A stretch of DNA of 64,000 nt from Chrysomallon squamiferum (taxonomy: Eukaryota; Animalia; Mollusca), in NCBI GenBank assembly GCA_012295275.1, contig CM022672.1, forward strand, positions 16,678,001 through 16,742,000. Direction: 5' to 3'. The notes under the pieces were generated by a model. That model saw nothing but the letters and a program-made list of their open reading frames with translations. It had not been told where the DNA came from and made no database searches. The translations under genes and the position numbers were made by a program. Positions within the stretch are counted from its first letter, which is position 1. Every line of letters starts with the position of its first letter. This document shows positions 6,693-54,977 of this stretch, in pieces.

Positions 6693-6744
<52 letters not shown>

Positions 6745-13196: not shown

Positions 13197-13244
<48 letters not shown>

Positions 13245-13269
13245 TTAATTAGTACTGGTTTTTACTTAC

Positions 13270-15958: not shown

Positions 15959-16010
<52 letters not shown>

Positions 16011-17066: not shown

Positions 17067-17138
17067 CTGCAGGGACTCCGCATCCAAATATCCAGCAGAT
17101 TAAATCCTTACCCCATCCACGTTTACGACGACGGTGTT
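17067..17138 (-). CDS. Gene B 72-nt exon: furin site plus Trp/Cys-rich hydrophobic peptide
   Basis: tttatag|...|gtaatt, phase 1-1, encodes EHRRRKRGWGKDLICWIFGCGVPA and links the cap exon to HYR1. Confidence 0.8.
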
Positions 17139-18999
17139 CTATAAATTTGGGTTTTTTTTTTCTTCTTAGTAACTTTATGGCTGCAAGCTTGTCAGAAGCT
17201 TCAATAAATAAGAATTATATTACAGAAAATTGTAATATTGTAAATTACCACTATTGTGGCATTAAAAATACTAATAAAATACTGACTTCCAAACTGATAA
17301 ATTTATATAAAGAAATACATTTTTGCATGTGTCATATTTGTTTTGTTACCCTTAGTTATGTTTGTTTGTTCATATATATTTATTTATTCTTTTCTTTCTT
17401 TCATTTTTTTTTTTCTTTTCTCTTTATATATGTGGGTTTTTTTAAAACAAAAGTGTACTGATGGAAAAGAATCGAAAAACATTATATATATAACTGTGTG
17501 TATAGGCTATGTGTATATGTACATATACATATAGGCACGCACGTACACATACATACATAGTTACACGTATACATGCTACCATATGCTGAAAAACACATAC
17601 ACATAGACCTGTACATAAAAGAAAGTTAAGTTCTCACCCTCACAGTTTGTGTTACCGCCCTGCCACTGGCCAGAATGACATTGTTTCCACGAAGTCACTA
17701 AACTCGTCTCACACAGAAACTTACAGCTTCCTCCTTCGCTGATTTCATCAGACTCGGTAGGTTTGTTGTCAACGCGACAGTCCAGTGAGCCAGGTTCTGC
17801 TGGCAGATCTCGTGTAGAACACACGGAAGAGCACTGAAATATATAAATATTAAAATTATAAGAAGAATATAATAGAATATATTTGTTAAATAAACACATT
17901 CATGATGAAAATAAATTAAATAAAATAAACAACGAAATAAGGTTAAATCCTGAATAGAAGTAGTTTTAGAAATAATGGTAACATTTTGTATCAACCCTTC
18001 CACGTTCTGGATGGATAAAGATCTGCGGCGTCAGTTAAAAACATTCCGCGATAATTTTTCTTCATTTTGTTTTTTACCTTAAAAAAAAAAAAAAAAAAAA
18101 AAACTAGTGCCAATTTAAAAAGTCGTTAATTAAATTACAACCAATATCATACAGTATCAAATACACAACCATAACAACAATAACAATAATAATAATAAAG
18201 GTAATAACAATAATAACAGCAGTAGCAACAACAGCAATAACAACAACAATAATAATTTCAAGATTTAAAACTTTCATAGTAAAAGTGAATAACATCTTTC
18301 CATTTTTTTTTTTTTTGACTCCAAGTTTTATGTAAATGTGACAACCTGATTGGAAATAAAAAACAGATTTGTCAATAAAGTTCATTTCAGTTTCAGTTTC
18401 CAAACAATTTATTTCATTTCAAAATGGCTACGAACAAAAACTAACGCACGCTCCCGGTGACGTCATATACTTTTCTCCCTTATTCCGGTTCCCCTAAACA
18501 TCGTAAACTGTAACTATGTTAACGATAACACCATTTAGATACAACAATTTTATCCATCAGTCTGTCTAGCTGTCGCAGTTTGTTTTTTTGTTTTTATTTC
18601 TATCTACATATCTGTTTATCTACGATCTATTTAAGGTCATGGTAAGATTGTCTGATAAAAAACTATCATCCAAACTTCTCTATCATAATATCTGTATAAA
18701 ACATTTAAAAAAAAAAAAGAATTAAAAAAAAAATTCTTCTAATAGTTTTTGTTATTTTGAAACATTAAATCTCCCCATCAAAAATTTAATGTAGTCAATA
18801 ATATAAAAATAACAATACTGCATAACTGTGTATTGTGCAAAAAAGAAAAGAAAAGAAAAATCACCAAAACGTAATCTGGTCCTAATTCTCTGACATCACT
18901 AATTTTGAAAACAAATATCTAACATATAGTTCTTCGAGAAACATGAATAAAAATAATACGAGCAATATAAAATTATGACTCAACGATTACATATTCTTT

Positions 19000-19232
19000 T
19001 TACCATAAATTCGTTCGTTAATATTTAACAACTTACCGAACAAACAAATGGGTCTGTAATTCAGCATATTGTTCGTTATTCTCTAAGACAGCTGGGCAAA
19101 CTCTGAGGTATTTTTGGGGCCAGTACATGTAATAATTCATAATCTCAGAAAATTCATTATGCCAACCAATTCATTATAAGTTCAAAATCAGAGGAACACC
19201 AGTGTCGGCGTTATAAAGAGGTTTGACTACAT
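19000..19232. mobile_element. Possible Tc1/pogo-type MITE end
   Basis: Repeated (tt)cgttat/cattata motifs end in cgttataaagaggtttgactac, the reverse complement of a CAGTCAAACCTC..TATAACG-like TIR. No partner TIR was found. Confidence 0.35.
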
Positions 19233-20116: not shown

Positions 20117-20152
<36 letters not shown>

Positions 20153-21377
20153 GCAAAGTTAAAAATAAGTTAAATGGCTTTGTTCATTTTCTGTGGTGTA
20201 TTTTATTTATATTATCTTCTTCATTCAATATGAATAGCAAATACTCTCAAATAAGCACAAAATATGTGATTTATTTTACTATATTGGAAAGCAAATGAAA
20301 AACATTTAAATGAAAACTTAGAACACAAAAACGTATAATGAAAACAAACAAAAATGTTTATTGTCATCCGATAATTTGGTACAAACGCACATGTGTATAT
20401 TTATGTGCATATGTTTTTTCCATATAAAATGGCTCTGTTGTTCTGAAAACAGTTTTATTATTATAAAAAGTGCAACATATCCCATGAAAATAAATGTAAA
20501 CCATAATGGTCCTATCAATGTTGTATCAGTTTGAGACAATGTATTATAGAAGATATAGTCAAATAAGTACAAAATCCGAATGTACAAGCATAATCAGAGC
20601 TGCAGCCAGTAATCGGACAAACGTTAAAGATTTCCATCACGTTTTTGGCTCATATTTTCTAATTTTGTTCAGCCAATTTTCTTAGCATCTTAAAATCCAA
20701 TAGGATTAGCATTTTAGTTTGAACTCTTCTTTCCTGACTAGCTATTGCAAGCTCATTCAAATCTAATCCTGTTTCTAAGTGTTTTCAGAATTCTATATCA
20801 CAACTATTATCTTTGAAAGTAAATATAACCTTTAGCTATCTGTAAGAAACTGAATGTTGCAAAAACAATATTTTCAAAACCAAATCAGAGAGCATCTCTT
20901 GGACACCTTGAAAGCTTGCGCACGTAAAGTAGCATTATGACGTCAGCTGTATGTCTAGTTAATCAAAAACAATAAATGGATGAAAAACGGAAAGAAAATA
21001 ACCTGCTCAACTTATGCCCGGCCATGAGATTTATTTCCTACGATATTTTTTATATTCGCGCATGGGCATTTATTCCTTCCCAAATCATAAATATTGTAAT
21101 TAACCAGTGCATTGGTTTAAAGACGGACGAAAAGTTCATCATTGATAGCTCTTTTTCTTCGAAGGAAAACCCATCGACTGAAATTATTTTAGCGATTGAT
21201 AACAAAACAATTCAAGGATCTAATGTCAAATGACATAGTTCTGCATGCTTATATTCAGTATAAAGATGGGTTTCGATATAATCCCGAAAATTACAGCTAT
21301 AAGCACCAGTAGCAACCTTGAATCGCCCAATATATGTATTTTTCAACAATCTGTTCTTGTTCTAACTGGTTCTTCCA

Positions 21378-21381
<4 letters not shown>

Positions 21382-21456
<75 letters not shown>

Positions 21457-21500
21457 TACACATACACACACGCACACACACACGCACGCACAGACACACA
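21382..21500. repeat. (CT)n(CA)n microsatellite; similar tracts at 5972, 24204, 26539, 30491, 33517, 35421 and 56848, and (AAT)n tracts at 1362, 10352, 51935 and 61351
   Basis: Direct reading. Confidence 0.95.
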
Positions 21501-21525
21501 CCTTTGGAATGGTTAGATGATAGGA

Positions 21526-21833
21526 GATACAGTACGCCGCCGGTACTATGTTAGCGGCGGTCACAATCGAGGAACTATTAATAAGCCCAGAGTAAAAAAT
21601 ACGTCTTTATCGCCGTGGTTAATTTGCAAAAAAAAAACGTGCGAGACCACTGAACGTAACGCAGAAGCATACGATATCGAGTATGATGCAGTCGCAAATC
21701 AGTGATGACTGACAATCAGTGACGAAACTATGACTCGGAAACTCGATTACCGGCCTGGCTCGTTTTAATGCCGGAGGTAAAATTCCCCGAATTTAATAAG
21801 CGCCCCGGTGGTATTTCGACCCAGCACGGTATT
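21526..21833. mobile_element. CpG-rich island, possible DNA-transposon remnant
   Basis: GC/CpG-rich patch ending in aataagcgccccgg...cacggta, similar to TACCGT..GCGCTTATT pogo-like termini. Confidence 0.3.
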
Positions 21834-24200
21834 TGTATTTAGTCTATGTGACAACTCATAACTCAGTTAATTTTCACATCGTCATATGAAAATTAACGTA
21901 AATTTATCGTCAGTTAGATTTTACTAACAGGACAGACCTTGTTATAAAACAAACATGTCTAATTTATCAGGAAATAATTTGGTTTATTGTGTAAAGGTGA
22001 CCGCCTCTTTATTCACTCAAGATGAATATTTTATAATGAATTAACAGAGAGAATGAAAATTTGACCTCTCTACCAAGAAATACATTTAAAATGTCTGTTT
22101 AAACAAAATTTTGATAAATTTCATTTATGAAGATACTGTACCTGTCAGTAAAATAACATGAAGCTATCAGTAAAATAAAACATCGTTTCAGAATAAACCA
22201 GGGATAAATTAATTACCTTTTGTTAGTAATGTTCAATTAGTATTAAACATATTTTCTAGAAGATTCTTTAATCTGAAACTAATAAAAAGTTGAATATTAC
22301 GTTATTCTGTAGCAATAAATAATATATATTAAGTAATATTTTAAACTGAAAAATTAATTTTCTTTGTTCTTAAAATGTGATTTTATCAATATTTAAAAAC
22401 AGTTAGCAATGATTTTTAGCCATTTTGTGAAATACCTAGAATTTTCAGTCATTTCGTATATGATTACAAGTACTTTGCAAAATGACTGATTTGTTCAGCA
22501 ATTACTCATAATGACTGGTTTCACAGAAGGTTATATAATTATATGAAAACTAACTTTACAGTGTCGGCATGAATCTGCCGACACTTTACTCAAATAAAAA
22601 CACAAATAACAATTTATTCTTGCATTACCAAAATTTATCCTGAATTTGGAAGGGTACTTACTTCCTTCTGCCAGTCCTGCATTTTTTTCTCATATAAATG
22701 ATTACGATCTGAATAATCTGATTAATTCGTGAACTTTGGTACTTGAAATGGGATGTAAGTACAGCATATTTTGTTACAATCTACATTTAAGTTTTAGGCA
22801 ATGAATTCTGATTATATCTTGTGCTATTGAACAAAAAGAACGCTTAGGTTATTATTTTATTTTCTACATTATCGTCTTAAAGAATCTACGAAAAATCTCA
22901 TTTAAAAAAAGAAAAATAATAATAAATAACGAGTTTAAGCAGCAATGACACTTAAGTTTTATAAACTAATTATTACGAATAACAAAATTCATTCAACTGT
23001 CTTTAGGAAATTCGCGAAAACTACAAGACACACTAAAAAAAACTGCCATAGAATTGGGCTAAAGGTTTAAACACCTCCCTTTTATAATTACTGTAGCAGG
23101 AGATAAATATGTAACGCCTCCGAAAGAAATGCTAACACTATAATTATTATTTACTGAAGTCATTAGTATATAAGTAAAGGACAAATTAGATTTTTTTTTT
23201 TAAATATACTCGATGCGATAGTTAATCACCTAAAACTACAGTTTCTAAATGAACTGAAAGTTTGTAGCCGATATGTTAATGAATACGGACAAATAATTTG
23301 AGTTGTTATAATTAACTGTAAATGTTATACACTTAAAACAGTATTACTTTAAATTATACATTAGAAAACAAACATGTGCGTATAAATAATAACTCGAATG
23401 TTTAACAGAAAAATATAATGATGACGATGATGATGATATTAACGATGATGTTGATGATGATAATAATAATAATAATAACAATAATAATAATAATAATACA
23501 GTTTCTTTGGTCCAAGATTTGAAAGCATAATTGTGCTTTGTTAATTGTAACTTAAAGAGTTATTTGTCAGTTTTCAGTCAGTGATATCTGTATCAATGCC
23601 GTAGAGTAATTATTACAGCTATGTTGGTAATAGATCAAATATACATAAACAATCCCAAGATAAGTTAAATAGTAAATATTAGAGTGAAAGCATCCTTAAA
23701 TTTGTACTTTTGCTAATAATTTATTGAGCAAAAATGAATAAATAAACTAATCGAATGAATAAATGAAATTTACTACTACTACTACTACTATTACTAATAC
23801 AACAATTATTATTATTATTGTTGTTGTTGATGTTGTTGTTGTTGTTCTTCTTCTTCGTCTTGTTTAAATCAAAATAACATCTTACCTGTGCTATTCTTGT
23901 TAACTGTAGTGTGACTGTTAGAACTAAAACGGCAGTCAGCAGCCACATTGTATAACAGAGGTAAGAGTAATGTACAAACGGAGTACGATTATGAGCGCCT
24001 CAATGCAAGCATCTTCTGTATACCCTATCTAACCAGGAAGAAGGTAATTTGCCAGTAATATTATGCGAAGAGAAGGAGTCTTCCTACTGAGAGCGAAATA
24101 ACCAATTATTTTTGACATCCGGGTATATCAGTATATATTTAAATACATCAGAATAAGTTAGTTTGCATGAATCAAGAATAGAGTATCAGGGTATGTAGAC

Positions 24201-29281: not shown

Positions 29282-29855
29282 ATGTATTGGTTAACGATTC
29301 TTGGTTTTGCTTACATACTGACGGTACGGCTGTGTTCAAGTGATGATGTTTTTTCCATTATCAAATACTCACCTGTAAGTAGTTTTATAGAAAGAGATTT
29401 GAATTTTTCTTCTTTTTACTTTATTCTTCTCTTTGTTAAAGTTTCAGCTTGAGGTATTACTAGTCGCAGGATCGACCCTTTTTAGGCTATTTTCCGTTAA
29501 TATCTGTGACACACAACTGCTTTATTTAACATCTGTGGTATGTGCTTACTCCTATATTCGTATAAAATAACTCTTGCTGCTGGTGGAAAAACAGTAGCCT
29601 CTCCATTTGCGTTTTTCTTTTCTTTCATTATCTGCATGAACCTTTATGATATGTGTAAAATATTTCTTCCTTCTCCATTTATGTTTTTCCCTTTCTTTTG
29701 CATGAACCTTTATGATTATAAAATCATTTTATTTTTTTTTTGAAAAACTCGTTCTACGCGTTTTTAAATTAATTTGTAAATCATGTAGTATTTTAAAACA
29801 AATACCTTATATATATATATATATATATCCATTCAATATAGATAGACAGATAGAT

Positions 29856-29905
<50 letters not shown>

Positions 29906-30270
29906 ACACACATACATAATAAAAATGCAATTAGGGAATTATTTATTACATTTGCAATCTGCTGATATAATTATTAATTCTTTAATAATTTTACTAAATC
30001 TTTTTAACTTGAAATTTACCGAGTTTAATATCATTACATTTTTTCAAAATTATGTTAAAAGGTGGAAAAGAACTGCGCCGCTCTTGTTGGGACTATACAT
30101 TGTAAGACGCCTACAAACTCAGAAAAGCTGGTAGTTCAAAATTCTAGAGAATCAGTGGCTCCTAATACAGAGTGTGTTACTGTAGATGGCTGTTTTCTGT
30201 GCAAAGAAGGATCTTGGGTGACATCTTCTTGCCAAGGTATATTTGTCCTATACAAAAACCAGTAGAGAAT

Positions 30271-30319
<49 letters not shown>

Positions 30320-30485
30320 TTCAAGAGAAAATAAGGAAACACTAAATATTTTAGAAGATGTTACTTAATCTTTTTGAATTATGTATTTTCTCTCTCTCTC
30401 TGCCAATAATTGTCATTCTTTTGCCCAACATATGGCAGGAGTGGTAGAAACAAAAGCAGAGACACAGAGTTGGGACACACACACT

Positions 30486-30579
<94 letters not shown>

Positions 30580-32848
30580 TATTAAGCTCTTCATTTCAGA
30601 CTGATTGTCATTATATTGCTGTTATTATTAAAAAAAAAATTCTTTCCTTCTTTAGACAATATGCACCATCGTGAAAAACGTTTCCTTGGATGGATACCTG
30701 TTGTGCTTTTTGTTGCTTGCGTTATCTTTTGCACATCTGGCGAAAGTAAGAAATATTAGAGGGTTTTTTTTTTGTTTTTGTTTTTGGGGTGTTTTGTTTT
30801 TCATTTAATGAGTAATAAAAAAAGATCATAAAATTATAAAGTAATTTTAATTTATTCAGTTTAAATAATAATAATTGATGATGATGATGATAATGTATCT
30901 ATTCAAACTTATTTTTATTTAAGGCTTACCTGATCATTATTCATTATATCAATTAATACTTCAGCAGAGGCTTCAATAATATTTAGAAAGTAATTTCTAT
31001 TTTTAGAACAGAAATTAACATGCTTTACAAACAGTTCATATAATTATGCATTTAATATGTAATTCGTCTCATTTAAAAATTAATTTCTGTATCCGTTTTA
31101 GATTAGAAATTAGAACGTTTTATACATAATAATCCTATAAACATTTTCAAATTATCTTTACGTTAAATTTAATATAGAATACAAATTCATTACATTTTAC
31201 AAATAATAATACATAAAATTTACAAATCACTTTTTTTTATCATAAATCACTTTTCCGTAGATGGTCGAGAAGAATACGATCCACCACGTTTTACAAAATG
31301 TGAGTCTCCAGGGGCTTTATTCTACGCACCCAAGGGTGAAAGTGCGGCTGTTGTAAAGTGGCAAGAACCAGAGTATAAAGCTGGCACCGATCAAAATCCT
31401 ACGTAAGAAATATTTGAAATAAAAATTCTAATATAATGTAATGAAAAGTGTAACGCTGAATACCACAATAAATCAACACAATACACTACAATACAATACA
31501 ACACAATGTAAAATAATATATCATATGATATGATATATGGTATGATATAACGTAACGCAACATAATGTAATATAATATAAATTAAAATAATAATACAATG
31601 TAAAGTTATAATAGTGCAATGGAAAATAGAACAATATACTATTATATTATATAATGTTATATAATATGGTATAATGTAATGCAATGTTATATATAAAAGA
31701 TTGGTACTGTCTCGTATAATGTATTACAATGTATGTTTGATGTCATATGATACGATATGATGTGGTATAGTGAGATAATATGAATATGTTTCGAAAAATG
31801 AAACAACATGACAACATAATATGTTGATATATATATAAAACATAATATGATATAATATAACTTATAACATGACATACTATGTCATGATTTGGTATATGAT
31901 ATGATAGTAATAATAATGCATAGCAATTATACTAGCTTAAAACAATTAATATATTTTAATTTCCCAATAAAATATTTTTCAAATATCACTGGATTCTTAT
32001 TTTACTGTTTTGCCCAGGCTGACGCTTGTTTCAAATACAGGGAAATCTGGAAGTCACTTTGAAGCGGGTTATTACACAATAACCTACCATCTTACAGACA
32101 ACCGAGGATTTACAAATTCCTGCTCTTTTTCATTTCAAGTGAAAGGTGAATAAACAAGAATAGATATAAAATTATTTACTAATATAAATTAGACAAAAGA
32201 AACACACACATTCACATTAACGTAATCTATTTCATTCTTTCTTTATCTTTTTTACCTATTTTTTGTTGTTTTGTTTATCTGGTTATATATACACACATAC
32301 ATACATACGTGCGTGTGTCTAGATATGTCCATATATATATTTACATTTGTAACTGTGTATGAATTTATATCAAACAAGTACTACAACAGACAATATTTTC
32401 TGAATGTAGCGAATTTTATATTATTTTAGTACGAACATGTGCTTGGCCAGGCTGGCTCGAGAACGGAGAAATAAAATGCGGTGAAGGGTATATAAAATAT
32501 GGAGATAAGTGTAGCATTCACTGTAATAAAGGATACATGCTCAAAGGACATTCAGAAATAACTTGTCAAGCCAATGAAACGTTTGACCATGATTTACCTC
32601 AGTGTCTACGTAAGTATACTTTTTCATCTCCTATTAATGATGAGCATTCTGTACAATACTTGTAGGTTACTTTAATAAAAATAAAAATAAAATAAAATAA
32701 AATAAAATAAAATAAAATAAAATAAAATAAATAAATAAATAAATAAATAATCTACAAAAGACAACAACAACAGTATTATCCAAAAATATTAGCTTTTTCT
32801 TCACCTAGCTTTGTTAATGTTTTAGCAAACTATTTAGTTTGAAAAATA

Positions 32849-32894
<46 letters not shown>

Positions 32895-33513
32895 GTGCTG
32901 TTATTACTGATATTATTATATTTTCTAACTGTTGTATTAGTTCTTGTGAAAGGCATAGCTTTTTAAAAATAAATACCACTAATTTACAAATTGATTTTTC
33001 CTATAGCAAAATCGTGTCCTGCTTTGGAAAATCCGAATTATTCAAATGGTTTCACATGTACTGATCGATACAAGTTTAACAGTATCTGCACACTGGAATG
33101 TAAATCGGATTTAGGATTTACTTCATCTCCAGCAAGGACAACATGCCAGGCCTCACAAAAATGGCTTATACCATATCCACGATGTTTAGGTATATTTATA
33201 TAACTGGTTATAAATAGATGACTATAAAATTTTAAAAAGGATAAATAAATAAATAAATAAATAAATAATCTTTTTAATAATTGTTAATAATTGTATATTT
33301 TCGTCAAAGTCTAGGATTTTACATTCTTTTTGAATAAATACATTTTCAGGAATTATGTGGACATTAAGATAACACACATACACACACACATTTTAATCTT
33401 AAATCTATACTATATACAATATTAATATAAGAAAATAGAAATATATGTTACCTTAATATTCAGGGGTGGAAAAAACGTATGTACGTATGTGTGTATGTTT
33501 ATTTATTTATTGC

Positions 33514-33567
<54 letters not shown>

Positions 33568-35428
33568 TATGGTCATCTCACACACAGACACAGACACACA
33601 CACACATATATAACTGTATGAATGTAAGTTTGCGATTCGTATTTTAATTTCAGACACGGTAAGTCCTTTGTTCACAAACTGTCCATCAAAAGCAGTTGAA
33701 GCTTATGCTGAAAAAGGAAAAACAACAACTGTTGTTACATGGCATCCTCCAAAGGCGACTGACAACTCTGGAAATGTGACAGTGTCACAGACTGATGGAC
33801 TACAGCCTGGACAGATATTCAGTGAAGGCAGCAACATGATAAAGTATACAGCCACCGATCCAACAGGAAACAAAGCTTTCTGCACTTACGCAATTATCGT
33901 GAATAGTAAGTATTGTTTGTGACGATTTTTATTTGGAAATGCTTTATACGTAAACTATTGCTGGGAATGAGTTAGATAATGTTGTTCAGTGAAAATATAT
34001 TTTACATAATAATAATTATTATTATCATATGGTGTCATAATTATACATTTATCCTTTCCAATATTGTAGCACTGACATGTAAACTGCCTAAGTTTGACGA
34101 TGATGATCTGGTATTTGACTGTGCTCAAGGATACCGGTATGGGTCTCAGTGTTCTGTTTCCTGTAAGAATGGTCTTCCTCTGAATGGAACTAACACGATC
34201 GTCTGCGAAAAAGATGATTCGCTTTCGCCAGTCACCTACTGGGATCTAGGAGGTCGAAATAAACCATACTGCATTAGTAAGATGTTACGAGAAATAATAC
34301 TGGTATCAGACCACATATCCAACTTCAAGAAAAGAAAAGAAATTAACAAACAACCGGCTTTAGAAGTACACGAAGTTCTAATAACTTTAGCAATAATAGT
34401 AAAATGTGCTCACTAAATAAAAATAAACTACTAATAATTACTAATGTAAAAAATTATTACTTTTGTTGTTGTTGTTTTGTTGATAAATTCTAATTATTGT
34501 GTTTATTTAGAACGACCATGCAAAGCACTGACAGCTCCAAAACATGGAGCTTTAGCTTGTGACACAAACATGGGAGGAACGTTTTGCACTATGTCCTGTG
34601 AGAAGAGCTGGGACATTCCTCGCACTGCTACAGCTGTTAGCATGTACACGTGTGGCTGGTCCGTTGGCATGTGGAAGCCAACGTCCATTGTTCCCGACTG
34701 CACAGGTAAGTCTATTTTTTTAAATAAACAAAATTATTTTAAAAAAGAAAGAGGGGCAAAAAATGTCTGATTCCCAAATGTATAGTTTGTTTTGACCATT
34801 TGATTTTTTTGTTTGTTTGTTTTGTTTATTAATTAATTTTGTTGTTAGTGTATTTATTTGTTTATTTATTTATTTATTTATTTGTCTTTTGTTTTAATTT
34901 CCTTTCCATGCAACCTTAGTCCCTTTTTTTCTGAATATTACGTTTTATAATTCAGTGTTTGTTTTTATTTTTCATTCACATTACATATCTTACCATATTT
35001 TCTCTGTATTTCTTTTTTATTTGGTTTTATTTTAAATTAAATTAAATTTTTTTCCTTTGAAATAATGAAATGAGCGTATATATTTTTTTAAAACTCCATC
35101 ACAACAATGTTAGCAACGATATCTTAATATAAATATTTTGCACAATATTTTTTGCTCACCAGAAACTGATCTTTTTATATATATCTTTCCACCTCTTATT
35201 GACAGTCTAGTCACAGGGCAGTGGACTGGAATGGAAAAAAATAATTGTGTATTGATTAAGATCATATCGTTTTTCTACACTATTACCTCATATTATAGTC
35301 TACTCATTCAAACACAACAAATAAATAAATAATAAAAGTTTAGTGTTTACCAGTTCTAGAGCAGTGTTTTCCAAGGCACCATCCCTGTGATTGATGAACT
35401 GCAAAAATGTTTGTCTGGCAGTGTGTGT

Positions 35429-35514
<86 letters not shown>

Positions 35515-38500
35515 GTGAATATATTAATCGGTGCTTGAACTATTATTGTCAAAATATGAAACAAGTTTCAAGGATACAAGCATCAACAAGAAATATTTTG
35601 TTGACAACCATGTTTTACTGAAACAATTTATTTTAAAACAAATTAGACAATACAGCTAAAATATGGAGCAGCTCAATCACTATAATAATAACATTCATGT
35701 ACTTACAATTCTTTCAGCAAAGCATGTAGCAAGTCGATTGCGCTTGAAGTCTCAACTCTACTACTATTCTGGAGATTGCTCCTCTCCAGATACACTGGCA
35801 GAAATCAAGCAGAAGTTTGTAGGAGTTATGAATGAGTCTGGCATCTGGACAGATGGTTGTCCATGCACTGTGGAAGATGTCAGTGTCATCTGTGGTGAAG
35901 CCAAAAAGAGAAGAAAAAGAAGTGCTGACACATACGAAGATTCACAGGTATCTTATACTAGCTACTTTTATTTAATGTCATTTGCTATTTAATTAATTAT
36001 CCAATGTTATTGGCTGTTATAATTATGTAATGTCATTAACAACTTGGACCATCTAACATTATTATTAGCCATTTAAATTGTCTAATGTCAGAAACACACA
36101 CAAATGCAAACACATAACAATAGTCAGATAAATGATATATTTGTTTTTAAATATACATGATGAGTCTACATTTATTATTTTCTTCCAACACAGATTAAAA
36201 AGAGATCTGTACCAGCAGCCATAATAACGTGGTACTGGACTGTCCCAATTGAGAATGGAAACATCTCATCAGCAGATGAACATCTCTTGGCACGAGCAGA
36301 CAAAATGTTTGACCTAGTGAAAAATAATCAGCTCAATATTAGTGTGGAAGGTTTTGAAATCAGACCAGACTCCTTTGGATATGATGAATCAAATCCTGAC
36401 TGTCCTCCTGGATACCTAGGTGTCTTCAAAACAGGAACATGTTGTAAGTGATAATTGATAAAGTAGCTACAAAACTAAATAAATATTCTAAACATTGTAA
36501 TAAATAAGTCTAATACTAATGTAGCTTCTAAATATTCTAATAAATAATGTTACAATTAATAATAAAGTGGTACCTTGGCGTACAAGTTTAATTCGTTCAG
36601 TGACCGAGCTTGTAATTCAATTTGCTCATATATCAAATCAGTTTTCCCAACTGAAATTAACTGAAAATCATTAATCCATTCCATCACCCAAAAAACCACC
36701 CCATTGTTTGTAACATGTTTTTAAATAAGAAAAATGTATTTTTAACTGACAAATATTGTATAAAAAATTAAATAAAAGAGAATGTAAAAAAATAAATAGG
36801 TTTTGTAAAGTGTATTTATCTTGGAGATCAGACAAATTATTTTAATACTGGTGTTACAGCCTTTATCAACTCCTCCTGCTTCAGAATGCTACATACCGTA
36901 AAAGTAGTACACTTCTACTGTGTAACCAAGTTGACTACATGCTCACCTCCCTCAAGTTTCTCTATGATTTCATGCTTTATTTCAATGGATATCATCCACT
37001 TCTTCTTCTCAGCACTATCCTTTGCTCTCACTTTCTTATGATCCATAGTCAGAAAAAAGAAATTTTTCCTAAATACTGCACAAAACACAAGCACAACACA
37101 ATAGAGAGGTAATCACGTGAAGTAAACAAGTGAGATGCGGGATGCTGGGTGGATGTTGTGTTGTTCGTTGCGCCAACTAGCAGTAGTGTGTCTGAAGCTC
37201 ACTTGTAACTCAGATTTTGGCTCACAACTAAAATCAAAAAATTTACCAAGTGATTGCTAGTAATTCAGAAAACTTGTAAGCTGGGGCACTCGTAAGTCAA
37301 AGTACCACTGTTTAATCTAGAAGTGAACACTGTAATAAAAAATGTAATAAATAATAATATAGCTTCAAAACAGAACATTTTATTATATTGTAATATTTAA
37401 TAATGTAGCTGAATATTCTAATTAATAAATGTAATAATTAATAAAATAGCTACTAAAACTGAATATTCTAATAAGTAAATGTAATAATTAATACTGTATC
37501 TACCTAAACTGAATTTTCAATATATGTGATTATAATTAATAATGTAGCTACTAAAACTGAACTTTGTAAAATGTGAATGTAATAATTAATAATATAGCTA
37601 AAACTGAACATTGTAATAAATAAATGTAACAACTGTTCGTGTAGATTTAACTGAATATCCTAATAAATAAGTGTAATAATTAATAATTAACTGATTGTTC
37701 TAATAGATACATGTAATAACTGGTTTTCTATTTAATAATAAATATAATACAAAACCTTTTCAAGAATTTTGAATTATTCTGATTTAAACAGCTCCATGTC
37801 CTACTGGTACAATGTATAATGCCTCAATTGATGACTGTGCTGCCTGTACTCCTGGGACATATCAAGACACTGAAGGTCAGTTTCAGTGTAAATCCTGCCC
37901 AGCTGGTACAAAAACAATAAGTGAAGGGGCTAGACTGAAGGACAGATGTATTGGTAAGTTTATAAATAATTGCTATGTTATTAATCAGCAATTATTTTAT
38001 TTATCAGGCTGGTTATTTGGCATCATTATTTGTTTTCTTGCATAATCATAGCATAAGTTTCAATACTGATGATATGGGAATTTGGATAATGGTGGTATGG
38101 AAATTTGGATAATGATAATTTTATAGATTGGTTATGAAAGTCTGGATAATGGTATAAAAAGGTTTTGATAATATAGTAAAAGATGGTGTAAAGGTTTGAA
38201 TAATGATCTGAGAGTCTATGTAATGATTATATGAAATAACAAATAGATGATGATATATTTTACTGGATAATGGTCATTCAAGAGTGGAAATCATTTACCA
38301 CAACTTCAGGGTCTAATCTTACCAATTAGCAATAAAGGATTGTTTACATGACCTTTTCACATACAGGAAAAATACCTTCACTGGTTGTTTTATATATATA
38401 CATATACACAAGTATCAGATTATTTATCTTGCAAACTTATTAATATACTTCTGAAGCTGGATTTCCTACATGGATCTAAATATAATATTGTTAAGGATTA

Positions 38501-38737
38501 GTCTTTAAAACATTTATAACTATTATCATTTAAAATGTATAAATTATCAGAAATAAACATAAAATCACACTTATAATAATTTTTATATTATGAATATTTA
38601 ATCTGATATTATATAATTATAAATGTGTCAGATTAACATTTTATCACTTTAATATTACTATTTTATTCTTCTTCTTCTTCTTCTTCTTCTTATTATTATC
38701 TCTTTTTTGGAAGTTTTCTTTGTTTTGTCTTTTATTA

Positions 38738-38781
<44 letters not shown>

Positions 38782-40280
38782 CTTGTTTTTAACATAATTA
38801 TTCTTTTATGATTAAAAACAATAAAACCATTTTTAACGAAAGAATTTTGAAATCACTGTTAGAAAGATTTTTACATTAATCACATACATACATACGTACA
38901 TACATACATACATATACACACAAACATACAACTATTCACACGTATTTTTTTATATATTTTTTTTATTTAAAGAATTATGTCCAGCTGGGTATTTTTCCGA
39001 GAGTGGTGCTGTGCCCTGTGATGCTTGTCCTGTTGGGAAATTTCAACCAGTCACTGGATCAACAACGTGTTTGTCGTGTGAACCAGGCACTACAACATCA
39101 GGCACTAACAAAACTACTGCAAGTGCTTGTCAAGGTATGAATTATTTTGTTTCTAAGTTTATCTGGTTCAAAATATTATAATTTGCATAAAATACAAGGT
39201 TTATAATGGAAATACTTTCCAAAATATTAATATAGTATAAATATTATGACTTATAGATTATATTTTGTAACCAGTTACTAATATGATCTTGTTTCTGTTT
39301 TCTTTTAATATTAAGCAATACACATTAACTTCATCTGAATTTAAAAAATAAAAAATTAAATGTTTTCTGTAGCAGAAAACTAAAATTCTTTGTAATTACA
39401 TTAAAGAAGTTAGATTTTTTTAATAAGTCATTATCAATTTTATATTACACATTGTTTGCATTTGGTTAATTTTTAAAATGTTATCTGTACCTGTCTGATG
39501 TATTATGTAAAAGAAGAAATATCTGGCATTCAAGGATTAATATCTCGGTGAAATGTCTTTTGATTCTTTTCATTTTGTTTTCAGTATGAACAGGTGAATA
39601 TCTAGCTAACAGGCAAAACAAAATGTTATGAAAATTAAATACATTTAAACTAATAAAAAGCAAAATACATTATTTTTTTAATTGAACTGTTTAAGAGCAT
39701 AAAACCGTGTTGTCATCCTGGTTCAAACAGAAGAACACATCAAAGAACTGAAAACTGAATTATTAACTATCTCTATTACTGATGGCAATTTTCTCTTTGA
39801 AGATTAGAGGTTTATCAGATATGTTGTTGGTGATGTGATGAACAGTAGTAATCTGCTAAAACAACAACCACTAAACAAACCATGTGCTCTTCTAGAAACA
39901 GAAATTTATTATTGTGGATATATTTTCTGAAAATGTGAAACAAAAATTTATTGTTACACTCTTATACTTACATTGAGATTTATTTATGCATTTCTGTGAT
40001 TATTAACTTTTTTCCTTCAAGCATTTGATGTGATCATCAAAGGCCCAACACTGGTATCATCAAAACGTGTTTTGAATCAGAACATCAGTGATTTGACTCT
40101 GTCGATGTGGCTGGCAACTGGATCTGCTAATGGAAGTTTTGGAATCAAGCAACCAGATGGAACCATTCCACTTCAACTGACATTTGGGTCAACATTGACA
40201 CTCAGTCTGCTAGGGTAAGCAGATACAGAAATGTGTTAAAGTAACATTAATGGATTTTCTGTGTCAAACAAAGTGCTTAC

Positions 40281-40313
<33 letters not shown>

Positions 40314-40388
40314 CATACATACATCTGTACTAGTCACAACAACTATCCTCCTTTTTATTTTTTATTTTATTTCTTTGTTCACTTTCTT

Positions 40389-40419
<31 letters not shown>

Positions 40420-43400
40420 TTATTATTATTCTTTTCTTCTAGGAAATCCATAGCAAATTTGGCACTTTCAACATCAGAGTGGCTCTACATAGCCATTGTT
40501 TATAACACTGGAGACAGGACAGTAGTTGTGTATAAAAATGGCATAAAAGAAAATTCCTGGTCTATTCCATCTGATGTATCACCTGGTTTCATTTCTGGTT
40601 CAAAGCTTGAAGTGGAATTAGTCACAACAAATGGTATAAAACTAATTAACAACTGGTGTAGAAGAAATACAAAATAAAATGAAGCTGGTATTATAAAAAA
40701 ATAATAATAATAATAATTAAAATAAAATGAAAAAAATAAGTGAAAAGGGAAATTGAAAGTGACGTGAAATAAAAAATTAAAATAAGATAATAACAACAAT
40801 AATGAAGTTTACAAAAGCATAAAACTAATTACAATAGAAATATGCACAATTAAATAAATAATTTTTTCCTTCATTTTACAGCTATCACTGTGAGATCTGT
40901 GTTTGTAACCCCAACTGCACTATCTGCTGGTGAAGCTGAGACTCTGTCCAAATCATGTGCAAGCAAACCAAGTAACAGTATTATTTCAGTCAGCGACCTG
41001 ACAACTGCAGATTCACAACAAAGAGTTCATCTCACAATGCCAACAACATGTGACGGTAAGCCAACAAAATTAATATCAGTTATTAGCTGTAGATCTCTGA
41101 ATAGGGAAGATTTCTTACTGTGACTCCATTTCCTAAGTTAATATTGTTTATTGCTGATAAACTATTATACAAATACAGCTGTTTCATTGTTCACTCTGAC
41201 TGACTCTATATTCAACAAATGGCAGAAGTTTTCATTTAATAAGGATGGTCCATTTCATACTTTCTATATATCCATCTGAAATCTAACATTACTGTTTAGA
41301 TAAGAGATGTTAAGATCTTTACTGGAGAAGGGACTTGTTATAAATATAATCTGCATATGAAACAGTAAAAAATATGAAAAATTTAATTATTACCTAAAGA
41401 AGGCATGAATTTTTATTGAATAACATTACCAAAAAAATAATTATATGCATATTTCCATGAATGTACATGTTAATTTTATTAATTATAAAACTGATAAAAA
41501 AAGATGAAAATTTATATAATATTAGATTTTGCTTAATGTCATAATTTTGAACAGTAAAGTGATATGTTGATTATAAAAAATAGAATTTACCAATATTTAC
41601 AAATAATAGGTTTCAGAATATAATTATGAGATATCACCCATAATAGAAAATGTAAAAAAAAAAAAAAAAAAAAAAAAGAACGAAAGAAGAAATTCTGGTT
41701 TTTTATTTTATTTTATATTATTTTTAAAATGGCAAAGTAAAACACAAAACCAAAGCATGTTAAAAACTATTGTATTCATTATTAACTTTTTTAACAGCTG
41801 TGAATGAATGTCTACAAAACTCGTTATGCAATGGGCACACCTGTATAAATTTGCCAGGTAGCTACATGTGTCAATGTCAAAATGGATATTCTGGTTCAAA
41901 CTGCACCATACCTCCTGATTACTGTTTGAATCATCAATGCATGAATGGTGTTTGCAACAATGGACAGAACAATTATACTTGTCTCTGTTTTGATGGATAC
42001 AAAGGTCACTTCTGTGATGAAGTAATAGGTAAATAATGTTTCTTCCATTTCACAGTTAATAAGTATTTGTTTCCAAAAGTGATTATCTTACAATAAATGA
42101 TAAATGTTATAACATGTAAATACTGAATATTGTATTGAAATGTGTTATTGTAAACTGTAAATGCTCAAGTATTACACTACATGGTGAAAGTTATTATTAA
42201 TATATTAAAGTAAATAGTATTATTATTAATGTGTTACAGTAAATGGTGAAAGTTATTGTTAATGTGTTACAGTAAATGGTGAAAGTTATTGTTAATGTGT
42301 TACAGTAAATGGTGAAAGTTTTTATCAACTGTGTTACAGTACATGGTGAAAGTTGTTATTAATATGTTACAGCAAATGGTGAAAGTTTTTAATGTGTTAC
42401 AGTAAACTGCGAAAGTTATTATTAATGTTTTATAGTAAATGGTGAAGGTTATTATTAATGTGTTACAGTAAATGGTGGATGGTCAAACTGGACTGGCTGG
42501 GACCAGTGTTCTCAGACTTGCGGAGGAGGAATTCAGAAAAGAACCAGACGCTGTGATAATCCTGCTCCAACACAACCAGAAGGAAAAAACTGCACTGGGT
42601 CAGCTTCTGAGATGAGAGCCTGCAACACAGAAAAATGTCCTGGTATGTAAACGTAATACACTGTATTTTCAGTAATACTTAGATTTGTATAGTCAAACAT
42701 TTGTATCACATAATATTGTTTGTAGATTTGTATTATCAAATGCTAATGTTTGTATTCACATGTGATATTACAAATTTTACTGAATGTTTTTCTAACAAAC
42801 CCTATAAGTTATTTATAAATTTTGGCTGCAGGATTGTTGAACTCTGTGGCAATCATTGTTTGTTATTTTGACCTGTAATATTTTTTTCTTGTTTCAGTCT
42901 GCCTTGCTAGTGATGTGAGAAGAGGTATAGGGTCTTATGTCAGCTGTAATGGGACAGATGTGGCTCTAGACTGTGTTCCACAGTGCAAAGACAAAAGCCA
43001 AGTGGTAGATGGTGGTATGAGAGATAATATTCTTGTCTCTTGTCGAAATGGTGTTTGGGATTCAAAGAGACCAAAAGTGGCATCATGCACAAGTAAAACT
43101 GTTTTTTAAAATGTTTATTGATATTTTCAAATCAAATGTAGAAATTTAAAATAGTGATATTATTTTAATGCTAGCTGATGATTTTGTTTTAGATGCCAAT
43201 AAACTGCATAATTTAATTGTATCTTGTCAAAATGCTGTTTATAATTAGAATAGATCAAAACTGGCATCATTCATAACTTTTAAAACATTTATAGATGTTT
43301 TCAGATTTTAGGGAAATTACATGTAGAAATACTACAATAACTGATCTCATTCTTATAGTAGCTGATAATTTGGCTTTTGTTAATTTTAAATATTAACATG

Positions 43401-44158
43401 TCTGACTGGGATGAAAAGTCAATTGTTTATAAATAAAAAGAAATTCTAATGTAGTGTGTAAGTCTATAAATATTTTTTAAAATATATTTTTAACTATGTT
43501 ATACAGTTTATTACTTTTAAACATTAATCACGTTAAGATAAATTGCTTCACAAGTATATAAAATAGTATAAATTATTATAATTTGATATCATATATTTTG
43601 AATGTTTGTTTGTTGTTGTTTTGTTGTTGTTTTTACAAAGATACACCTTTCATTTTCATGTATAAGTACTTTTTTTATTTACATCTTTAATTTTATTCAG
43701 TGTGATTGGACTAAGACAGACATTATAATTACTCAGTACTGAGATTACATTTATTCAAAAAATGACATGTATTATCAGTTTTCAGATATTCAGAATCAGT
43801 ATTCAATTTAATTATTATTTATTAATATTTCAGAAGCAGTGTCTCCTTCCAGACTAACAATATCCACTGTAGCAACATTAAATACAAATGAAGAGTTATC
43901 CTCCCCTATTATAAATGATGTGGAATCATCCATTGATAACAATCTTAGTACAGTGAAGTGCAGGAGTGACACATCATGTCAAATAAATGTTAAAGTTGTA
44001 ACTGACAGCACTAGTCAGAACAGAAAGAGGAAAAGATCAGTTGGCACTGCAGTTACAATCACCATGACATCAGCAATTTCAGATGGTGATCTTCAGCTTG
44101 CAGAACTGATGACTTCAAATACTGGTAAAAATATTTAGTTTAGTTTTTCATCTGCATT

Positions 44159-44202
<44 letters not shown>

Positions 44203-47200
44203 ACAGGGTCCAGCACATAAGAGGTGTTAGCTTTCATGTGCTAACAACCATATTAAATTTCTTTTCTAGGGTTTGTGCCTCTGGTGGACCTGCTGATTGT
44301 GTAATTAAGAAACTGTGACGGTTGATTATAACAGATACATATATTTGCTTACACTACAGATATAAACTACATATAATATCAAGTATCCACTATGAACACC
44401 AAAACAGATAACAATATTTATATTACGAAGATAATTATTTATTTTACACATGTATTCTTATTATTTAGTGGTTGAGGACATGCGAATTGGCATTAAATGA
44501 AATATTGTAATTCTTAATCCTTTTAATTTTCCCTAACAGGTTATGTTAGAAATATATTTAACTCAAAACTCTCTAAAGAGCATATTGAGGTTTCATCAAA
44601 TTGATCAACAAATCAAACAGAGCATACAGAAACGGGATAACCATTTGTCTCTGCTTCTGACTTAAACAAAGATAATGCAAAATATAATTAACTATATAAT
44701 TGGCTAATAATGGCTGCCAACTCCTCGGTCCCACCCATGTTGTTCTCCTCTTTGTTCTGTTTCATCACTGTCTCATTTTTCTTTTGTCTTTTACTTAAAT
44801 AAATATGTCACAGACTTCCCTGAAGGTGACAAAAATTCCTTTTGTCTCTCGCTAATGATTGTTAATTGTTTGGTGATTTCAGTAACTGGATTACTGTTAA
44901 CTAACAGTAGATGTTTAATTAATACATACTGTTAGGAATATTTTTAGAAATGAATTGTTATTATATTTACTTACTTTAATGATGCATACAGGTTAATTAC
45001 GAGATTTTAAACTGTATAATAAGTAACCTATTTAGGTAAATAGTAAATAAGTTACCATCATTTTCAAAAAATTTACCTTAATAGTATTATAATATAAAAT
45101 ATTATAAGTAGGTATAACCTAAATTGCAAACTGTTGTATAATAAATAAGTTATGACCAATCTGCTAAGTTAAAGAAACACAGAAAATAGTACATCTAAAT
45201 ATCGCTGAGAAAACTTTCCACAGCTTGAACGAGGCCCTATTAGGGTATGGTTAAGGGCCCTACTACATAAGATAAAAACACGGTTTACTGTCATAATATA
45301 TTATGTATAATATGTTTATGTATAATCTTTTCATGATACAAACAAAAATGATCTGAATACTTTTGATTGAAAGTCATTCAGAGAAATGTTACAAAAAACT
45401 CTGAAAAAAAGAGAATATTAACTTATTTGCATCATTATCAGTTTATTCTCCTCACAAAACGCACATGCCACAGCTTTTGATAAATATAATCAGCAGATTG
45501 ATCAAGAATAAACCTAATTAGGGGGATTAATTAATCCTTTGACTTATTATTAAGCACATAAGTTGATTTTTTTGTTGTTAATTGCATTTTTCTTTTCTTC
45601 CTTTTTTTATTACTATTTTTATTTTTATGTTTTTATAGATGATATTTTAAGCGATTATAATAAAATAATTATTGCTGTTGATGTCGTTACTGTTGTTATT
45701 ATTATTATTTTTATTATTATTATTATTATTATTACTGCATGTTCCAGTGAGTCCACAGCTACAGCAACTGATTGATCAAATTAATGTACTTGAACAGTCA
45801 GTACAGCAGATACAAAATGACACTTCTGTGTTTGATGTTACTGTTGATGGTGTGCAGTATTCCATTCTGAGAGAAAGCATACAAGTAACACCTGATGTGC
45901 AATGTCCATCTGGAGCTGTGGTCAGAAACTTCCTGTGTGGTAAACCATTTCTTTCTGAATACATACTTCTGTACTTTTGTGAAAATATCAACAAAAAAAA
46001 GAAATTAAACAGATACATATGAAGAAGATAAACACACACATACACACACACACGCTTATTGTTTACTCATTGTTTAAATTAGATACCATTTTATATAATA
46101 TTAACTTTAGATTTTGTTTTCTATTTTAAAACTAATATTAAAGTATTATTTTAGTTTATAAATAACATTATTGTTTACTGAAAGCTTATTACCAAAATTA
46201 AAAAGTTTCTACAGATTTTGAAAAAAAAAAAAAGTATTACTTTAATAGAGAAGTATTATTAAAGATTTCTCCAACACAAAATTTTAAAATTATTTAATAT
46301 TATTTCAGAAACTGTTTTTATCTTTGATTCTTTAAAAGGGACATTTAAGGAAAAAGTACATAATAACCAAAAACTGGGATATTTTATCTTCTAGTGTACT
46401 GTGCCCCAGGCACATATTATGAAAATGGGAAATGCACATTATGTGAAATGGGAAAATATCAGGATGAATCAGGAAAAACAGAGTGTAAGTTGTGTCCAAC
46501 TGGTACAACAACAGAATTCATTGGATCAACAGAGGTGGAAGACTGTTCAGGTACGAATGAAAAAATCGCCACAACCCAACACATTTTAATATCAAAATAT
46601 ATTGGATTCTTACGACTGGAGTTTTGTATAATAATGACATGAAAGAAGACATCAATGTTCACTTATATGAATAACTGAATAAAATTCATATATTGGATAT
46701 AAAACACAACTACAAACATGTTAGTCCACTGAATTTTGATTATCAGTATAAGAGAATTCTAGGAATCAAAAAAATAATTGGTATATTATTTACCACTGCT
46801 TATAATAAATATACTAATTACAGTACCTATCATATTTTCTTTTCCAGAGCCTGTAAAAACCACTACACCTGATGATGATGAAAATCACAATCATGAAAAA
46901 GGTTTGTTTCAGCTGTGTTTTATATTAAGCTAAAATATTATTTTTGGAAACAATGCTTTAAATGAGTTAAAACAATTGAATAATACTTACAATTTATAAT
47001 GTTATTAATAATATATTTTATAATACAGTATTTGAATAGTGTAGTTTCAAAAACATTAGTGTTACTAAATATTATATTTATTTCTGGTTTTGGAAGTATT
47101 TATTTCTTCTCTTTTCTTTTTCATTAAAGAATATTTTTCTTTTTGGAAAGAGATTTCTATCATTCAGCTTTAATGATTAAAATCTATGTTTCATTGTTTA

Positions 47201-48413
47201 AAATTTGGTGAATTTTTTTGTTTGTTTTTTGTGGGGATTTTAACTTTGAAGGTAAAATAATCACTATAATATTAAATGAAAATATTTTTATTATTCTGTT
47301 TCAGTTAATAAGTACCCTATTGGATTTGTGATTGGTGTAACAGTTGCAATAGCAGTCATAATCATATTGGTCATTTTAATATTTATTATCTATCACAAAT
47401 GTTACAGGTAACTTCTAGATATTTCTTTCTTTCATTTTTTTCTCTTTTCTTCTTCTTCTTTCTATTATTATTATTTCCACTACCATTACTATTATCATTA
47501 TTGTAATTTATATTTATTATTATTATTATTTGTTATTGTTGTTCAGTATTCAATTCAAGTCATAGATAATGGAATCATTTCTTTTAATGATGTTGTATCT
47601 TGGATTATCCACACCATTTGCAGAAAAGAATCTTTAGGGCCAACTTTTCTGAATTAGATAAAAGGAGTTAATAGGAGAAATATTTGAATAGTGCAGTGAA
47701 TCTGTGTGTGGAAAGCTGCTTCATAAATACAACATTTCATCAGAATATTGACAAGTTTTGTGGCATTTTGTTTTTGTTTTGTTTTTTTGTGTTTTGTTTT
47801 GTGCTAATAAGAACCTGCTAATAAAACAATATATCATATGAAATAATGTATGAATTAATAATATAGTGGAATATACTTTCAGATCAGGTCACCGACATCA
47901 GACCTCCTATGGGTAAGTTTTTGCTGGAGCAAATATAAATCTTAATTGTTAATCTTTATAAATTCCTTTAATTTGAAATACACAGGATATAGAACACTTG
48001 ATGTACACTTTATTTAGTCTTTATGTAATTTTTATTGGCAAAAAACAAAATGAAACAAATAAAAAATAGGACTCCATTTAGATCTTAGAATTTCTTGGTT
48101 TTAATTTTATAAATGATTTTATTTAAAAAAATGCAATCCATTATTTAACTTTTTAACTGAACTTTTCAACATTTATATAACAGTATTTCCATTTACAACA
48201 GTCAGTATAAACATCATTATATCTATCTCTGTTTATAACAGAACTCAAGATTTACGGCCTGCAAGTCGAGCAAGCCTCAACAAAATTGTCCCAAGTTTTG
48301 AGAACACAGAGTATTTCAAATCAGAAAAGCCAAATTACCATAGATGGGGTGATTCATCACAAGATTTACCACCACCATATGAAATGATCCAGCACAGAAA
48401 AGGTCTACCATGA
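29282..48413 (+). CDS. Gene C: intact SVEP1-like sushi/HYR/GCC/LamG/EGF/TSP1 type-I transmembrane protein, 27 coding exons, 4605 nt, 1534 aa
   Basis: Exons: 29282-29374 (signal peptide MYWLTILGFAYILTVRLCSS), 30062-30236, 30656-30745, 31261-31402, 32018-32145, 32430-32609, 33007-33189, 33654-33905, 34070-34276, 34511-34705, 35718-35947, 36194-36443, 37792-37953, 38973-39134, 40022-40214, 40443-40633, 40882-41055, 41798-42028, 42469-42642, 42898-43092, 43834-44124, 45748-45939, 46395-46550, 46848-46901, 47305-47407 (TM), 47883-47912, 48242-48413 (TGA). All are GT-AG, phases chain without a stop, and the length is divisible by 3. The exon-2 acceptor (aaaag) is weak. Confidence 0.9.
29461..29602 (+). 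mobile_element. Degenerate MetaSINE-like fragment
   Basis: gtcgcaggatcga...ggctatttt...tggtatgtgct...tataaaataactcttgctgct...aaaacagtagcc matches, from memory, the order of motifs in the molluscan MetaSINE core. Confidence 0.5.
30656..30745 (+). CDS. Gene C 90-nt exon: furin site plus hydrophobic fusion-peptide-like segment
   Basis: ctttag|...|gtaaga, phase 1-1, encodes DNMHHREKRFLGWIPVVLFVACVIFCTSGE. Confidence 0.82.
31261..34705 (+). CDS. Gene C HYR-sushi-sushi-HYR-sushi-sushi block (7 exons)
   Basis: YDPPRFTKC...WQEPEY; DTVSPLFTNCP...WHPPKATDNSG...YTATDPTGNKAFC; sushi exons CAWPGWLENG, CPALENP, CKLPKF, CKALTAPKHG. Confidence 0.9.
31425..31925. repeat. Degenerate pentanucleotide satellite (ATATA/ATACA/ATATG)n
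   Basis: Visible 5-bp periodicity over ~500 bp of gene C intron 4. Confidence 0.75.
36455..37740. repeat. Degenerate ~50-bp intronic minisatellite interrupted by the Tigger element
   Basis: The motif aatgtagctactaaaactgaatattctaataaataaatgtaataatt recurs on both sides of 36565-37310. Confidence 0.7.
36565..37310 (-). mobile_element. Non-autonomous Tigger/pogo (Tc1-mariner superfamily) element, internally deleted
   Basis: Imperfect TIRs: (ta)aagtggtaccttggcgtacaagt ... actcgtaagtcaaagtaccactg. The minus strand from 37046 reads MDHKKVRAKDSAEKKKWMISIEIKHEIIEKLEGGEHVVNLVTQ*KCTTFTVCSILKQEELIKAVTP, a CENP-B-type HTH transposase N-terminus. Confidence 0.85.
41798..43092 (+). CDS. Gene C exons: two EGF (41798-42028), TSP1 (42469-42642), sushi-like (42898-43092)
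   Basis: VNECLQNSLCNGHTCINLPGSYMCQC; VNGGWSNWTGWDQCSQTCGGGIQKRTRRCDNPAP. Confidence 0.9.
42170..42477 (+). repeat. 33-bp minisatellite that includes the TSP1-exon splice acceptor
   Basis: Unit ~ttattaatgtgttacagtaaatggtgaaagtta, with AGs at 42238, 42271, 42304, 42338, 42371, 42401, 42434 and 42467. Confidence 0.9.
47305..48413 (+). CDS. Gene C TM exon, 30-nt exon and tail exon (missed by the ORF track)
   Basis: YPIGFVIGVTVAIAVIIILVILIFIIYHKCYR / SGHRHQTSYG / TQDLRPASRASLNKIVPSFENTEYFKSEKPNYHRWGDSSQDLPPPYEMIQHRKGLP*; phase-2 junctions are consistent. Confidence 0.82.

Positions 48414-51933: not shown

Positions 51934-52017
<84 letters not shown>

Positions 52018-54923: not shown

Positions 54924-54977
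<54 letters not shown>

Follow-up and report, generated by a model that had tools for sequence, protein, structure and literature searches.

A predicted furin site and a fast-diverging apolar tip encoded by a single, probably internal exon in SVEP1-like proteins of molluscs

A stretch of 64,000 nucleotides from Chrysomallon squamiferum (here the window; AT-rich, ~30% GC) contains a gene, gene C, in which one small exon encodes a furin-type site followed by a short apolar segment, referred to below as the tip. The exon is read here as an internal module whose predicted furin cut would expose a fast-diverging apolar tip that likely grips membranes or microbes, a reading that is favoured tentatively, at a little short of an even chance. 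The module of furin site and tip is a real and apparently undescribed feature and a variant of the convertase-armed membrane-active peptides. No description of a module with a furin-exposed tip was found in the open-access literature, where six locus or accession names also returned nothing.

The gene C model comprises 27 exons between 29282 and 48413 on the plus strand and encodes 1534 aa with no internal stop. A signal peptide is present at the N-terminus and a clear transmembrane domain (TM) near the C-terminus. Pfam searches of single exons identified HYR, Sushi, Ephrin_rec_like, EGF and TSP_1 modules, with Laminin_G_3 matched weakly. Together with the uninterrupted model, these matches bear out the proposal of the initial annotation that a 1534-aa protein with a signal peptide, a HYR/sushi stalk and a C-terminal TM is encoded here. 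The features of gene C are as follows:

29282..29374, plus strand: first coding exon, predicted signal peptide, phase 0 donor, with the same place and phase as the signal exon of gene B
30062..30236, plus strand: Cys-rich pro-domain exon, 6 Cys, degenerate sushi/CCP-like, weak acceptor, aligned with the pro-domains of homologues
30656..30745, plus strand: tip exon, predicted furin site REKR at 30670-30681 and 17-residue apolar tip at 30682-30732, the end being C-x3-C
31261..36443, plus strand: stalk part 1, consisting of HYR (2 exons), sushi, sushi, HYR, sushi, sushi-like, and a module with a second basic site (residue 613)
37792..48413, plus strand: stalk part 2, consisting of three Ephrin_rec_like modules, LamG-like, EGF, TSP1, a third basic cluster, the TM (47305-47407) and a short cytoplasmic tail

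Two internal modules of the stalk, at 35718-36443 and 43834-45939, carry basic clusters in loops (residues 613 and about 1266-1270) and gave no Pfam match. A SEA-like fold is a guess for both, and a cut at these clusters could shed the tip-bearing half of the protein.

The tip exon is a candidate exon of 90 nt, preceded by a pyrimidine tract and AG, followed by GTAAG and of phase 1-1. Its frame is open from 30658 and reads NMHHREKR then FLGWIPVVLFVACVIFC. The splice signals, phases and open frame confirm the symmetric 90-nt exon with HHREKR and a 17-residue apolar run that had been called from the letters of the window. The mean Kyte-Doolittle value of the 17-mer is 2.69, and the best other window in the ectodomain reaches 1.35. 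A near copy of the exon was found in a DNA run, X3. At 30686-30702 this copy contains an in-frame 3-nt insertion, adding one residue within the apolar run, which is indirect support for a coding exon. It also carries a Leu to Pro change at tip residue 2, indicating that the Phe-Leu-Gly start is not fixed, and most relatives likewise start otherwise.

Splicing was followed in three RNA runs from a single study which, like X3, were available as contigs only. One RNA contig joins 31402 to 32018 and 32145 to 32430 and continues into the exon at 33007, indicating that gene C, or a near copy, is spliced as modelled downstream. The tip exon of gene C and its two junctions were covered in none of the three RNA runs, cover starting at 31351, and a gap between contigs proves nothing.

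The order of the N-terminal exons was seen in RNA for a paralogue, gene B, which occupies 4979-23948 (minus strand) and faces gene C (29282-48413, plus strand) head to head. The two genes have the same module order and share exon phases across their first four exons. In the family tree they belong to two separate branches, gene B grouping with relative P0148 and gene C with P0066. The N-terminal exons of gene B are as follows:

23886..23948, minus strand: signal-peptide exon, matched by RNA loose ends at 17842 (runs X1 and X2)
17638..17833, minus strand: Cys-rich pro-domain exon, CCP-like predicted fold
17067..17198, minus strand: tip exon, symmetric, 132 nt, RRRKR, Gly/Trp-led tip, C-x4-C, no Met

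All three RNA runs contained the GT-AG joint 17638>17198 on the minus strand, from the pro-domain exon to the tip exon. The joint from the tip exon to the HYR exon was present in contigs of X1, with a loose end in X2, and the step from signal exon to pro-domain exon was represented by loose ends in X1 and X2. These joints and loose ends show in RNA, for gene B, the order signal peptide, pro-domain, furin site with tip, HYR. The gene B contigs are 90-99% alike to the window and come from that single study; at this likeness they derive from an allele, a tandem copy or a sister species, and not from the window's own allele.

Part of this locus is duplicated. Window positions 934-12993 and about 51500-64000 are 82-93% alike at an offset of about 50.6 kb, forming a tandem segmental duplication, and the duplicated unit contains gene B and a two-pore potassium-channel-like gene (2012-2815 and 52816-53619; labelled by eye). 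A further copy of gene C may be present outside the window.

Relatives were collected using the downstream sushi-like exon 34513-34704 as the query, a sequence incapable of selecting for the tip motif. The search returned 173 proteins at E<=0.001, of which the best 150 of 173 were used, with exon-sized fragments and N-terminally truncated models left out. The resulting set of 25 N-termini that reach a signal peptide consisted of the two window genes, 21 cluster representatives and two full-length cluster members that replaced truncated representatives. Named relatives come from sources including Haliotis, Littorina, Mizuhopecten, Dreissena, Patella, Mytilus and Mya, and are labelled 'SVEP1-like' in databases. 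A basic site was defined as [RK]-x-[KR]-R and was counted if it lay no more than 60 residues before the first HYR domain (HYR1). Among the matches listed, such a site was present in 18 of the 25 N-termini and absent from 7/25. The distance from the site up to HYR1 ranged from 11 to 56 residues in the family set. The layout of site and tip is common to gene B and to relatives from abalone, periwinkle, scallop and zebra mussel, and the pattern of a basic site with an apolar segment, internal and exon-encoded, is supported as a family-wide feature.

The residues after these sites differ from those after basic sites elsewhere in the proteins. Among the matches listed, Phe or Trp occurred within three residues of the site in 13/18 N-terminal cases compared with 1/42 internal sites (Fisher p = 2e-8), 12/18 tips compared with 7/42 internal sites were apolar at a mean hydropathy of at least 0.5, and median hydropathy after the site was 0.96 for N-terminal and -0.26 for internal sites (Mann-Whitney p = 2e-4), although these p-values overstate independence because the rows are related. 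An early Phe or Trp was missing from 5/18 of the tips listed, and 6/18 were not apolar. The tips of P0049, P0209 and P0148 are polar or short, and other types include cationic amphipathic (P0011, P0013) and Gly-rich (P0143, P0020) tips. A Cys pair was present at the end of 11/18 tips among the matches listed, the remaining 7/18 being without one. Frog brevinins are likewise convertase-matured hypervariable peptides with a C-terminal Cys pair.

Mapped on a quick tree, presence of the tip required 10 changes and showed no clustering (173 of 500 shuffles were as low), a pattern to which truncated models labelled as tip-less contribute. A profile search from the family alignment filled up with repeat proteins, its 35 matches including four additional Haliotis sequences, and the first HYR half-exon of gene C used as a query found no homologue. 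Several individual relatives were also examined. P0020 and P0052, apparently one Dreissena gene, are models that differ by exactly the 50-residue segment of furin site and tip, a difference due to exon skipping or to an annotation miss. P0045, P0110 and the amphioxus protein P0076 have a tip-like amphipathic segment before HYR1 without a canonical basic site, two of them with a Cys pair. A further amphioxus protein, P0087 (uncharacterised, MACPF-like by eye), has a signal peptide, a basic site and an apolar helix at its start and sushi/HYR at its end, and with this layout the tip idea may extend beyond molluscs.

The tip varies far more than its surroundings. Fifteen pairs of close relatives were compared: in 13 of them the tips were 33-88% identical and the HYR and sushi modules that follow 76-98%, and in the other 2/15 the tips did not differ; 9 of the 15 pairs were drawn from six abalone sequences, and the pairs are related and hence not independent. 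When one gene B RNA contig was compared with the window, 13/118 nt differed in the tip exon and 3/205 in the adjacent pro-domain exon (p = 2e-4), and 7/7 codon changes in the tip exon were replacements among the changes listed. X1 and X3 also differ from each other in this exon. In X3, among the changes listed, replacements made up 8/9 codon changes in the first sushi exon of gene C and 2/2 in the gene B pro-domain exon, indicating that replacement excess is not special to the tip. In the sequences compared, a hypervariable tip lies between flanks that are conserved.

The Cys-rich cap proposed in the initial annotation proved to be a real domain of the family. An alignment of 16 sequences (14 homologues and genes B and C) showed three invariant Cys, a fourth near-invariant Cys and the motif G-x-W, and the fold predicted for the gene B copy (pLDDT 85) had CCP/sushi-type structures as its top structural matches, the best of these being moderate (Z 6.9, rmsd 2.8, 62 aligned). 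Pfam and PDB sequence searches returned no named domain for it and no Pfam Sushi match, Foldseek gave nothing at E<=0.001, and the ESM Atlas contained no usable match for the pro-domain or for the pro-domain and tip region of abalone. With a CCP-like predicted fold and no Pfam Sushi match, the cap can be classed as a degenerate sushi module. The tip exon would then be a phase-1 cassette set between sushi and HYR exons.

An AlphaFold model of the N-terminal 270 residues of an abalone relative (21 sequences) placed HYR and sushi at pLDDT 81-93. Scores under 50 were obtained for the furin loop, for the Gly linker and for most of the tip, and the Cys pair lay in a short helix at residues 111-118. 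Values below 50 place the tip outside any confident fold, on an alignment that is shallow, and agree with the expectation that it is not buried in a globular domain. A two-copy complex prediction for tip and HYR, with the alignment not used, scored 0.01, a value too low to be read for or against pairing.

The stalk itself resembles known proteins. SVEP1/Polydom and Drosophila Uninflatable (Uif) share HYR, CCP/sushi, Ephrin_rec_like and EGF modules with gene C, according to the parts of PMC13722417 and PMC3340373 that were available, and the array of HYR, sushi, Ephrin_rec_like and EGF was found by Pfam on window exons and in five relatives. The available text of PMC13722417 describes SVEP1 as a secreted protein of about 3500 aa with a vWA domain at the N-terminus, a long C-terminal CCP array and a furin site, and that of PMC3340373 describes Uif as a TM protein; in neither text is a furin-exposed N-terminal apolar tip described. 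Pfam found no match to vWA, CUB or lectin families in the scanned exons of gene C or in the five relatives. Gene C was rejected as an SVEP1 orthologue, being 1534 aa long, with a TM and with no vWA among the scanned exons.

In the favoured reading, gene C mRNA would include the tip exon, and a furin-type protease in the secretory pathway would cut after REKR and allow release of the sushi-like pro-domain, whose 6 Cys are an even number, so that no link to the tip is needed. The apolar or amphipathic tip would be exposed on a flexible Gly/Pro-rich linker at the distal end of the HYR/sushi stalk, from where it could partition into a target membrane or hydrophobic surface, and tips may cluster through the C-x3-C pair. 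Bulk properties of the tip are kept while sequence and length are free, which suggests that the target is physical, for example a lipid bilayer or the surface of a microbe, and its fast change points to an arms race, conceivably with microbes or non-self cells. Displayed at the cell surface, the protein would act in capture or recognition, as a tethered counterpart to the convertase-matured antimicrobial peptides, and shedding at the second basic site is possible. A more specific proposal is that these proteins form an undescribed molluscan family of cell-surface harpoons, in which an exon-shuffled, convertase-armed tip resembling an antimicrobial peptide, under diversifying selection, is mounted on a long SVEP1-like stalk and, by insertion into their membranes, tethers microbes or foreign cells to the surface of the host; this is possible but doubtful.

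Big defensins are, by analogy of layout, the closest working comparison. As described in the available part of PMC7203481, they possess a pro-domain, a dibasic site and a hydrophobic N-terminal region; Cg-BigDef1 and Tt-BigDef resemble gene C in having a signal peptide, pro-domain, convertase site and hydrophobic N-terminus, and are molluscan and diversified. The N-terminal region of Tt-BigDef inserts in membranes and Cg-BigDef1 forms nanonets, according to the portions of PMC7203481 and PMC6805989 that could be consulted. Unlike gene C, in which HYR and sushi follow the tip in a 1534-aa TM protein, big defensins are small and soluble and have a six-Cys beta-defensin domain. The 11-56-residue tip, the 1400-residue HYR/sushi stalk and the sushi-like pro-domain also set gene C apart, and no sequence relation between the two was found. 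Myticalins and MgCRP-I, in the part of their literature that was available, likewise combine a conserved pre-pro region and basic site with a hypervariable mature peptide as in the gene C family, but their peptides are released free, whereas the gene C tip has no second cut and stays on its stalk.

The freed tips could alternatively self-assemble, tip helices and the C-x3-C motif linking molecules into dimers or nets and tip variation setting which paralogues or alleles assemble together. The Cys pair that ends 11/18 of the tips listed is consistent with this while the gene C pro-domain has an even 6 Cys, as is the helix in which AlphaFold sets the pair in the abalone relative (residues 111-118), and the available part of PMC6805989 reports that N-terminal domains of big defensins assemble without permeabilising membranes. 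The pair is missing from the other 7/18, however, and strongly cationic tips such as that of P0011 are better suited to membrane binding. Self-assembly is accordingly considered unlikely as the primary role; nets of this kind are possible in cis, in trans or after shedding, and would be compatible with the gripping of membranes or microbes.

Another explanation is that the cut exposes a variable protein ligand or an identity tag, such as a tethered agonist or an epitope for gamete recognition or allorecognition, which a receptor would read and which would act outside lipid. Hypervariability between conserved flanks and the position of the genes in a tandem-duplicated block would suit such a ligand, and Uif and SVEP1 work via protein partners in the available parts of PMC3340373 and PMC13722417. 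The family nevertheless keeps an aromatic start and an apolar or amphipathic character across lengths of 11 to 56 residues up to HYR1, a combination easier to reconcile with a physical target than with a pocket, and a receptor-read tag is considered distinctly unlikely.

The gene C exon contains an in-frame ATG at 30661, which was overlooked in the initial annotation. Taken alone the exon resembles a signal peptide because it combines this ATG with a basic stretch, an apolar run of 17 residues and an end of small residues (TSG), a layout of start Met with n, h and c regions that was judged by eye. The exon could then be, only or also, an alternative first coding exon of a shorter isoform without the pro-domain, with REKR serving as the n-region. 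The gene C tip is among the two most hydrophobic of the family tips (2.5), it scores -1.4 on a rough insertion scale compared with +2.0 for the upstream signal peptide and -6.4 for the TM, and the upstream acceptor at 30062 is weak. However, the homologous exon of gene B is Met-free and spliced internally, and the upstream signal and pro-domain exons of gene C are intact and in frame. The abalone group has HHREKR as in gene C, with Gln or Arg in place of Met and a signal peptide of its own, and P0205, a full-length member of a cluster in the gene C branch (support 94, quick tree), has REKR, an apolar helix and C-x3-C. Since Met is absent from gene B and from the relatives with HHREKR or REKR that have their own signal peptide, the Met of gene C is probably incidental. 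Use as an alternative first exon is improbable, though besides an incidental Met the exon could conceivably serve both as tip and as signal peptide.

A likeness to class I viral fusogens had been drawn from the basic site directly before an apolar, Phe-Leu-Gly-led peptide and from the C-terminal TM. The likeness stood for the basic site and the apolar first residues and failed for what follows. Gene C shares with class I proteins such as influenza HA and coronavirus S a protease site, an apolar N-terminal peptide and a C-terminal TM, on the gene C side from sequence motif alone. In class I proteins the fusion peptide is conserved, and heptad repeats assemble into a six-helix bundle with a helical core, according to the available part of PMC3397359, features that were not recovered here. 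In place of a heptad repeat, a beta-sandwich HYR follows the tip in the AlphaFold model of the abalone relative, and a rough heptad scan of 440 residues past the gene C tip gave an unconvincing best score of 0.45. About 1300 residues of disulfide-rich modules separate the tip from the TM, and the model of P0205, a close relative, ends without a TM. With no convincing heptad repeat after a tip that is hypervariable, class I membership fails, and a cell-cell fusogen of this type is very improbable.

It is equally hard to credit that the tip is a neutrally drifting linker left after removal of the pro-domain: its low pLDDT, variable length and loss from some members would suit a linker, but its strong Phe/Trp and apolar bias relative to internal basic sites, and a divergence in the tip exon well above that of the neighbouring exon with 7/7 replacements among the changes listed, argue against one.

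Large 'SVEP1-like' genes are common in mollusc annotations, without assigned function, and the tip exon is likely their working end. It is small, its N-terminus is predicted to be freed by a cut, and it changes at a much higher rate than the remaining gene; synthetic 20-mers and a single site mutant allow its role to be probed directly. If tips bind microbes, they would represent convertase-matured antimicrobial peptides in a membrane-anchored form. They would also offer new membrane-active sequences and mark a candidate locus of variable recognition in the immunity of shellfish. Should the doubtful proposal of cell-surface harpoons prove true, it would constitute an innate recognition system with its specificity in one swappable exon.
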